Shown: positions 27,965 to 28,110 of the stretch, piece after piece
How positions within the stretch are numbered: the first letter of the stretch is position 1
Layout: each line of letters opens with the position of its first letter
Source: Escherichia coli
GTDB taxonomy: Bacteria > Pseudomonadota > Gammaproteobacteria > Enterobacterales > Enterobacteriaceae
DNA length: 64,000 nt
NCBI RefSeq assembly: GCF_003334355.1
Contig: NZ_QOWP01000007.1
Strand: one strand, 5' to 3'
Program-made: the position numbers and the translations under genes
The notes under the pieces: model-generated
Told to the model about the DNA's origin: nothing
Seen by the model: only the letters and a program-made list of their open reading frames with translations
Database searches by the model: none

Positions 27965-28110
27965 CTGAAGCGCTACGCTTATCAGGCCTACGCGGATCAT
28001 CGATGTAGGTCGGATAAGGCACTCGCCGCATCCGACAAGCGCTGCATGATACGACGCCTAACGCGTCTTTTCATGTCAACGCGGATGAGTCGTTAACACC
28101 GCATCCGGCA
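27965..28110. repeat. REP/BIME-like palindromic units downstream of sodB
   Basis: Opposed REP-like motifs (CGCTTATCAGGCCTACG ... GTAGGTCGGATAAGGC ... GCCGCATCCGACAAGC ... CACCGCATCCGGCAAG). Confidence 0.65.

Follow-up and report, generated by a model that had tools for sequence, protein, structure and literature searches.

A four-unit REP cluster between the sodB stop codon and its terminator, and its size variants in Escherichia coli

In the window analysed here (the whole stretch of DNA, 64 kb in length), four REP units of alternating orientation occupy positions 27962-28110, between the stop codon of sodB and the sodB terminator, with the convergent gene ydhP opposite. The cluster is a strain variant of REP128, the name under which the element is catalogued in K-12, and as such belongs to known biology: Table 2 of PMC10100675 gives REPv128ab as the REP of sodB in K-12, and the RefSeq record of MG1655 has no REP features annotated at the sodB locus. 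The number of units differs between strains through 73-bp and 89-bp differences, which are bounded by short direct repeats supplied by REPs of the same orientation. The cluster is an atypical four-unit BIME; we consider it highly probable that it is of selfish origin and acts as an at most modest and dispensable barrier to exonucleases or to transcriptional read-through.

The elements new to this work are the allele census, the repeat-bounded differences of 73 and 89 bp and the evidence for an Escherichia-specific insertion upstream of an apparently older terminator. It should be added that the significance of the case is low, REP and BIME being textbook features of E. coli and strain variation in BIME unit number having been documented. 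Its modest value lies in a clean worked example of a REP cluster inserted, as it seems, between a stop codon and an older, conserved terminator.

The sodB 3' region and its four REP units

The local gene order is mepH, sodB (+), ydhP (-), cydH and purR, and the sequence at the sodB locus is that of a non-K-12 E. coli. The coding sequence of sodB (Fe superoxide dismutase; 27358-27939, + strand) is an ORF of 193 amino acids, annotated as sodB in identical E. coli records, and its stop codon TAA (27937-27939) is directly followed by a second in-frame TAA. The convergent neighbour ydhP (28174-29343, - strand; ORF of 389 amino acids) is annotated as an MFS transporter. The 234-nt intergenic region between both genes is 100% identical in many E. 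coli chromosomes. The gene upstream of the repeats is sodB, and it is the sodB 3'UTR that holds the REP units. They are separated from the stop codon by a 22-nt spacer with the second TAA (27940-27961, + strand), which is missing in non-Escherichia genera, and from the terminator by a 28-nt, Escherichia-specific spacer (28111-28138, + strand), kept among E. coli alleles and likewise missing in other genera. The original prediction had placed a REP/BIME cluster at 27965-28110, between the sodB stop codon and the terminator and toward ydhP; its coordinates were within 3 nt of those found, and the ORFs and the terminator scan agree with that location.

Several further features were recorded around this locus. 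A 13-bp terminator-like hairpin with a poor T-run lies just after the mepH stop codon (27234-27263, + strand) and precedes the sodB start by about 95 nt. The sodB 5'UTR with the start of the gene (27283-27387, + strand) was considered as a member of the SodB_thermometer family and rejected, since its 31.4 bits (E = 0.0016) fall short of the gathering score of 98. Between ydhP and purR, overlapping the cydH (ynhF) region, a full-length Rfam match to the STnc550 sRNA was found at 29506-29896 on the - strand (396.5 bits), and Term-seq data (PMC7815308) give a very strong primary 3' end of ynhF at the STnc550 region.

The four palindromic units are 30, 33, 38 and 30 nt long (U1 to U4) and alternate in orientation. 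U1 (27962-27991, - strand; TGCCTGAAGCGCTACGCTTATCAGGCCTAC) is a z1-type REP near consensus, which reads on the + strand as an iREP ending in CTAC (27988-27991) and on the - strand as a REP with 5' GTAG. It agrees with the z1 consensus at 29 of 30 positions (blastn-short E = 2.8e-10), whereas none of 100 dinucleotide-preserving shuffles of the window gave a match, and its RNA folds into a hairpin of -12.8 kcal/mol. A head-to-head linker of 13 nt (27992-28004; GCGGATCATCGAT) connects U1 with U2; it is short and S-like, and not the long L linker of BIME-1 according to the definitions in PMC3333891.

U2 (28005-28037, + strand; GTAGGTCGGATAAGGCACTCGCCGCATCCGACA) is a y-type REP with 5' GTAG (28005-28008), an AA/C stem mismatch and a hairpin of -16.8 kcal/mol. 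It shares 86% identity with the y unit of the K-12 BIME between yfcL and mnmC, the first 16 nt being identical, and resembles the y REP crystallised with TnpA_REP (GTAGGACGGATAAGGCGTTTACGCCGCATCCG). A tail-to-tail linker of only 5 nt, AGCGC (28038-28042), follows.

U3 (28043-28080, - strand; TGCATGATACGACGCCTAACGCGTCTTTTCATGTCAAC) is a degenerate z2-type unit of 38 nt, whose foot is CAAC on the + strand (GTTG on the - strand) and not CTAC/GTAG. It matches the z2 unit of the K-12 yfcL-mnmC BIME, equal in length, at 30 of 38 positions (79%), and a unit at the sodB locus of E. whittamii at 29 of 38; its hairpin amounts to -13.9 kcal/mol. U4 (28081-28110, + strand; GCGGATGAGTCGTTAACACCGCATCCGGCA) abuts U3 with no linker and is a degenerate y-type unit devoid of GTAG. 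Its identity to the y consensus was 86% over 29 nt (blastn-short, E = 0.02), to the canonical K-12 y unit 74%, with the first five bases missing, and to the E. whittamii unit 87%; the hairpin is weak (-7.3 kcal/mol). Inverted repeats I1, I3 and I4 coincide with REP units, I4 with U4. The GTAG/CTAC foot is present in U1 and U2 and absent in U3, which has CAAC, and in U4, which has none. Judged from its sequence, the cluster is composed of two intact REPs (U1 and U2) and two apparently decayed relics (U3 and U4).

The z1 consensus was checked against real sequence, the canonical K-12 BIME between yfcL and mnmC, which reads TGCCTGATGCGACGCTTATCGCGTCTTATCAGGCCTAC, then ACGTCACAC, then GTAGGTCGGATAAGGCGTTCACGCCGCATCCGGCA. 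Strict y and z2 patterns allowing up to three mismatches gave no match, because U2, U3 and U4 carry loop indels or more mismatches; these units were assigned by alignment to the real K-12 BIME instead. Outside the cluster, blastn-short revealed no other significant match to the y, z1 or z2 consensus in the 64 kb. One hairpin just downstream of grxD (CTGACGGATGCGAACGGGCATCCGTCAG; 25692-25719, - strand) has a REP-like GGATGCG...GCATCC core and was unflagged by the y/z1/z2 consensus scan; the primary grxD 3' end maps here in K-12 Term-seq, and PMC10100675 gives REPt127 for grxD.

Taken together, U2 and U3 align on the + strand with the full 77-position Rfam model naRNA4, a y + z2 pair model derived from REP325 (47.7 bits, E = 5e-7), U3 forming the second hairpin of the match. 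Membership in naRNA4 (RF02564) failed, since the scores of 47.7 bits (+) and 28.5 bits (-) are below the gathering threshold of 59.5, and the gathering-threshold Rfam scan of the whole window returned no naRNA4 match. Matches at gathering level in the same window included RprA (62426-62533, + strand) and rydB (56762-56822, - strand). Furthermore, two adjacent tRNA genes are located at 38488-38642 (+ strand), with HPnc0260, an antisense-RNA family, at 38607-38769 on the - strand, opposite the 3' half of the second tRNA.

Folding of a 239-nt RNA gave z = -4.86 for the + strand (against 200 shuffles) and -5.77 for the - strand, with one local hairpin per unit on both strands. The U1-U2 segment occurs at no fewer than 40 places per genome in every one of the 5,426 complete E. 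coli genomes and therefore belongs to a dispersed, high-copy family; U3-U4 was found at a median of only 3 places per genome. The units are imperfect palindromes of 30-40 nt with a stem-loop, resemble the REP consensus, have dispersed copies, in high number for U1-U2, and lie between convergent genes, all of which are attributes of REPs, a class that is extragenic and located for the most part 3' of genes or between convergent ones. The search for REP consensus which had been proposed as a check thus returned a match, at one mismatch to z1 and with no such match among the shuffles, and the expectation of several opposed REP-like palindromic units was borne out by four alternating ones, with the z1 and naRNA4 similarities given above.

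According to PMC3333891, BIME-1 consists of z1 + y with a long conserved L linker, often with an IHF site, and occurs in single copy, BIME-2 of tandem z2 + y units only, with short S linkers, and atypical BIMEs combine y, z1 and z2 units and mixed linkers in a chimera whose copy number varies between strains. The arrangement z1-y-z2-y with short linkers fits the atypical class, to which the cluster is assigned. Assignment to BIME-1 was rejected on account of the 13-nt z1-y linker, the lack of an IHF consensus and the two further units attached; assignment to BIME-2 was rejected since U1 is z1 and not z2, although U2-U3-U4 follow the order y-z2-y.

The original prediction had also named IHF binding, and for this cluster that part did not hold. 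The same paper attributes IHF binding to the long L linker of BIME-1, in place of which the cluster has its 13-nt linker, and the IHF consensus WATCAANNNNTTR had no match with up to two mismatches in 27940-28173, where 1.7 were expected. Across the whole window, sites with IHF consensus were no more frequent than expected by chance. A palindromic pair of perfect matches to the consensus, AATCAACATATTG (+) and AATCAATATGTTG (-), was noticed at 62435-62450, at the 5' end of the RprA match.

As a statement about the class, the predicted functions do stand, the introduction of PMC3333891 describing REPs as stabilising mRNA and as binding gyrase, IHF and Pol I. It is on these class properties that one may picture the cluster as a DNA-level binding site for IHF, DNA gyrase or Pol I that would structure the chromosome locally; the y-z2 arrangement of U2-U3 also resembles BIME-2, a gyrase target to judge from the reference list of PMC3333891. 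Nevertheless, IHF is excluded by the sequence, with neither a consensus at two mismatches nor a long L linker at hand, U3 is degenerate, and a recent preprint finds REP325 to be without a role in nucleoid compaction or REP-REP contacts, so that we regard such a site as very unlikely.

Transcription across the cluster

The intrinsic terminator of sodB (28139-28173, + strand), identified by terminator scan and by a Term-seq 3' end, has a perfect 11-bp stem (28139-28164) followed by TTTTTGTTT, a run which stops 4 nt short of where the stop codon of ydhP lies on the opposite strand. In the Term-seq supplement of PMC7815308, position 1736114 of MG1655 is a strong 3' end on the + strand, supported by 23,167 and 8,132 reads in two conditions, and the sequence quoted for it is ...AACGCAGAAGGTTATCCTTCTGCGTTTTTGTTTAATTAG. 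By its offset from the ydhP stop codon, this position equals 28167 of the window, in the T-run after the hairpin, where the window and K-12 are identical in sequence. The 11-bp stem, the TTTTT behind it and a 3' end mapped within the U-run are those of a rho-independent terminator.

No + strand 3' end is listed in the K-12 Term-seq data (PMC7815308) between the mepH-internal end at 1734542 and that at 1736114, and hence none in sodB or in the REPs. With the mapped 3' end situated at the terminator downstream of them, the REPs are co-transcribed with sodB and are therefore transcribed as an internal part of its 3'UTR, at least in K-12, which is the source of the Term-seq data and carries the two-unit allele, not the four-unit one. 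A candidate internal promoter was rejected, the scan giving one weak site against 1.3 expected.

These data also bear on whether the cluster might be the source of a naRNA-like small RNA, or of a 47-amino-acid protein encoded by an ORF at 27953-28096. In favour are the naRNA4 match, which remains below threshold, and the presence of the ORF in the ORF list. Both seem extremely unlikely: no 3' end is reported inside the REPs, and the ORF is made of REP sequence and is not conserved, since neither 73 nor 89 is a multiple of three.

On the - strand, the shared hairpin is followed by ACAGUUGC and not by a U-run, and any read-through from ydhP would cross the terminator hairpin and then the REPs, which fold into hairpins on this strand as well. 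The main role of the cluster could, by analogy, be that of stopping or capping ydhP transcripts that might otherwise run antisense into sodB. According to the literature, some 60% of the REPs of E. coli are found between convergent genes and 78 REPs within predicted bidirectional terminators, and K-12 Term-seq has no primary ydhP 3' end; the only 3' end inside ydhP is ORF-internal, at 1736788 (second supplementary file of PMC7815308). However, ydhP appears to be poorly expressed, that ORF-internal end is the sole one mapped within it, and the short alleles and other genera do without such a barrier. As the main role, insulation from ydhP is in our estimation possible but unlikely; it is compatible with the best explanation, i.e. 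a selfish BIME with modest barrier activity, which may include a leaky barrier on this side.

Size alleles, other genera and possible function

The comparison of strains, the second check that had been proposed, sorted the alleles of 5,426 complete E. coli genomes into three size classes. The four-unit form of the window was recognised by its specific 71-nt segment, present once per genome in 1,350 of the 5,426, with at least 99% identity in 1,329. The K-12 type, with 73 bp missing and otherwise identical to the window allele, accounts for about 350 genomes, a count obtained by subtraction (1,698-1,701 minus 1,350), since the junction query also matched four-unit alleles. The missing 73 bp are bounded by the direct repeats D2, CCGCATCCG, at 28026-28034 and 28099-28107, which are 73 nt apart; the gap fuses U2 with the end of U4. 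The flanks being perfectly identical, the obvious reading is that the K-12 type would have arisen from the four-unit form by simple deletion.

The short form is the commonest and was found in about 3,700 genomes (69%), including CFT073 and strains of O157:H7 and O145:H28. It has 89 bp missing, bounded by the direct repeats D1, 20 nt long and 80% identical, at 27978-27997 and 28067-28086, 89 nt apart. What remains is a unit similar to z1, which has four mismatches and CAAC at its end, and one similar to y; both form weak hairpins (-2.9 and -9.4 kcal/mol). Moreover, strain 1919D3 has a four-unit allele of a rare kind, shared by no more than 21 genomes in all; its outer units (U1 and U4) carry the substitutions of the short form. 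This allele (L129, 97-347) contains perfect 15-nt direct repeats, CATGCCAACGCGGAT, 89 nt apart, and removal of one CATGCCAACGCGGAT repeat together with the intervening segment yields exactly the short allele. The short allele may descend from it, or else it may have arisen by recombination between allele classes.

Loci with the 3' end of sodB, at least 120 in number, were collected by pattern scan, and 17 of them, from Enterobacteriaceae other than Escherichia, were examined. In 13 of the 17, the distance from the first base of the stop codon to the start of the terminator hairpin (ACGCAGAAGG...CCTTCTGCGTTTT) is 9-12 nt; these belong to Citrobacter, Enterobacter, Salmonella enterica subsp. arizonae, Trabulsiella, Leclercia and a MAG labelled Raoultella. 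In Kluyvera the hairpin has been kept, but at +52 and after a different palindrome, and Pluralibacter and Kosakonia have other terminators after sodB. No match to the REP consensus was detected in any of the 17 loci. As regards Kluyvera ascorbata (L103), the first 60 nt after the sodB stop codon comprise the palindrome AATAACCCGGC...GCCGGGTTAT before the conserved terminator, with no REP match; it is a separate insertion, in a position comparable to that of the REPs. It should also be added that similarity to the ydhP 3' end in Salmonella enterica subsp. arizonae (L061) stops after roughly 80 nt, where unrelated AT-rich sequence begins, and that ydhP may be truncated or replaced there.

Among the matches listed, E. 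whittamii was the one Escherichia outside E. coli. The E. whittamii site has only two units, a z2 unit of 38 nt and a directly abutting y-like unit without GTAG, within flanks that match E. coli; its z2 unit and U3 share the unusual GTCTTTTCA. From these comparisons we infer that the terminator is probably ancestral and family-wide, and that the REPs with the two spacers would have been inserted between it and the stop codon in the Escherichia lineage. U3-U4 may be the older pair, to which U1-U2 were added later, a reading that draws on a single outgroup. The order of the allele events as a whole is deduced from this one Escherichia outgroup and from sequence logic.

The preferred explanation, a selfish BIME with little effect on its host gene, can accommodate these observations as follows. 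REP/BIME DNA would have arrived in the Escherichia lineage as selfish repeats, possibly spread by RAYT/TnpA_REP, as suspected for the REP class; U3-U4 would be old and decayed, and U1-U2 better preserved. The features relevant to TnpA_REP are intact in U1-U2 and lost in U3-U4, which fits a selfish origin followed by decay. In the transcript, by analogy with other REPs, the three stable hairpins (U1 to U3) may form a second line of defence against 3'-to-5' exonucleases (PNPase, RNase II) and helicases once the terminator hairpin has been breached. From the convergent ydhP side, the same hairpins may partly hold back transcription or decay; REPs located between convergent genes are described as leaky barriers that work either way. 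mRNA stabilisation at sodB is, by the same analogy, plausible. The effect on sodB would probably be modest and dispensable, because the transcript already ends in a strong terminator hairpin that caps it, two weak units are all that most E. coli keep and the sister genera have none. As a caveat, the four-unit form persists at 99-100% identity and with three well-formed hairpins in about a quarter of genomes, which could reflect selection rather than recency.

A different mode of action was also considered. Liang, Rudd and Deutscher are said to have found in 2015 that ribosomes can be stalled by a REP lying no more than about 15 nt from the stop codon. A stop-proximal REP of this kind was rejected for sodB, where the gap is 22 nt.

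Another reading is that the number and quality of REPs form a selected, allele-specific regulator of sodB expression; strains with four units would then have more stable sodB mRNA than those with two weak ones. REP325 strongly stabilises upstream mRNA in constructs, and REP positions are known from the literature to vary between strains; in the alleles themselves, hairpins of -12.8, -16.8 and -13.9 kcal/mol contrast with those of -2.9 and -9.4 kcal/mol in the short form, and the identity of at least 99% across 1,329 genomes would be in line with such selection. On the other hand, the 11-bp terminator hairpin, where the dominant 3' end is located, already protects the transcript, terminal REPs show no effect on half-life genome-wide according to the literature, and strong REPs are absent at this site from 69% of genomes and from all sister genera. 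We therefore hold a selected regulator to be rather improbable, and a selfish element with modest, dispensable effects remains the explanation we prefer.

It is likewise quite doubtful, and a little more so, that the size alleles are functionally different 3'UTRs, i.e. four units with three strong hairpins, two strong units in K-12 and two decayed ones in the common form. If this were true, the alleles could differ in the stability of sodB mRNA, in resistance to RyhB-triggered decay or in insulation from ydhP, and gain and loss of REPs would provide a natural, protein-neutral tuning of oxidative-stress capacity between E. coli lineages. Recent work describes the effect of 3'UTR REPs on mRNA stability as context-dependent and unresolved, and the alleles represent a potential natural allelic series for this effect in its native context.

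Comparison with known systems

The nearest relative of the cluster is REP128 (REPv128a, REPv128b) of K-12 MG1655, which has the same locus and flanks and is identical in U1, the linker, the 5' part of U2 and the terminator. Unlike the window allele, it has two units; U3 is missing altogether, and with it the 3' end of U2 and the 5' part of U4, the second unit being a U2/U4 hybrid. The window allele is about four times commoner than the K-12 type of REP128 (1,350 versus about 350 complete genomes).

BIME-2 arrays, such as REP325 (yjdM-yjdN; the source of naRNA4, RF02564), have in common with the cluster alternating y and z2 units, short linkers and a unit number that varies between strains, and both are 3'UTR-associated arrays of hairpins. 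REP325 has twelve units, whereas the cluster has four, one of them z1, with U3 and U4 apparently decayed and the naRNA4 score below threshold. Furthermore, REP325 is located inside the yjdMN operon and itself works as a terminator that depends partly on Rho, whereas the cluster precedes a strong intrinsic one. With BIME-1 (z1 + y with an L linker and IHF site; RIP/RIB elements) the cluster shares z1 and y in head-to-head position, and it differs in the 13-nt linker without IHF consensus and in the extra units, BIME-1 being present in single copy.

The similarity to the REPIN/RAYT (TnpA_REP) system is seen in the inverted doublet U1-U2, with its GTAG/CTAC feet, stem mismatch and putative CC|T sites (TGCC|TGAA and GGCC|TAC) comparable to those cut in vitro. 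In the study of the crystallised substrate, a change of any base of GTAG abolished cleavage by TnpA_REP in vitro. The cluster differs from this system in having no RAYT gene nearby, and the tetranucleotide is absent from U3, with its GTTG foot, and from U4, with no foot.

Finally, the REPs that stabilise mRNA, of malE-malF and of the osmC and yghA transcripts, resemble the cluster in that the REP hairpins are transcribed into the 3' end of an mRNA. The malE-malF REP was reportedly recognised as an mRNA stabiliser by Newbury et al. in 1987, and REPs as a class are reported to block 3'-to-5' exonucleases. The REPs of sodB differ from these in their position; they lie inside the 3'UTR, and a separate, strong terminator follows them.
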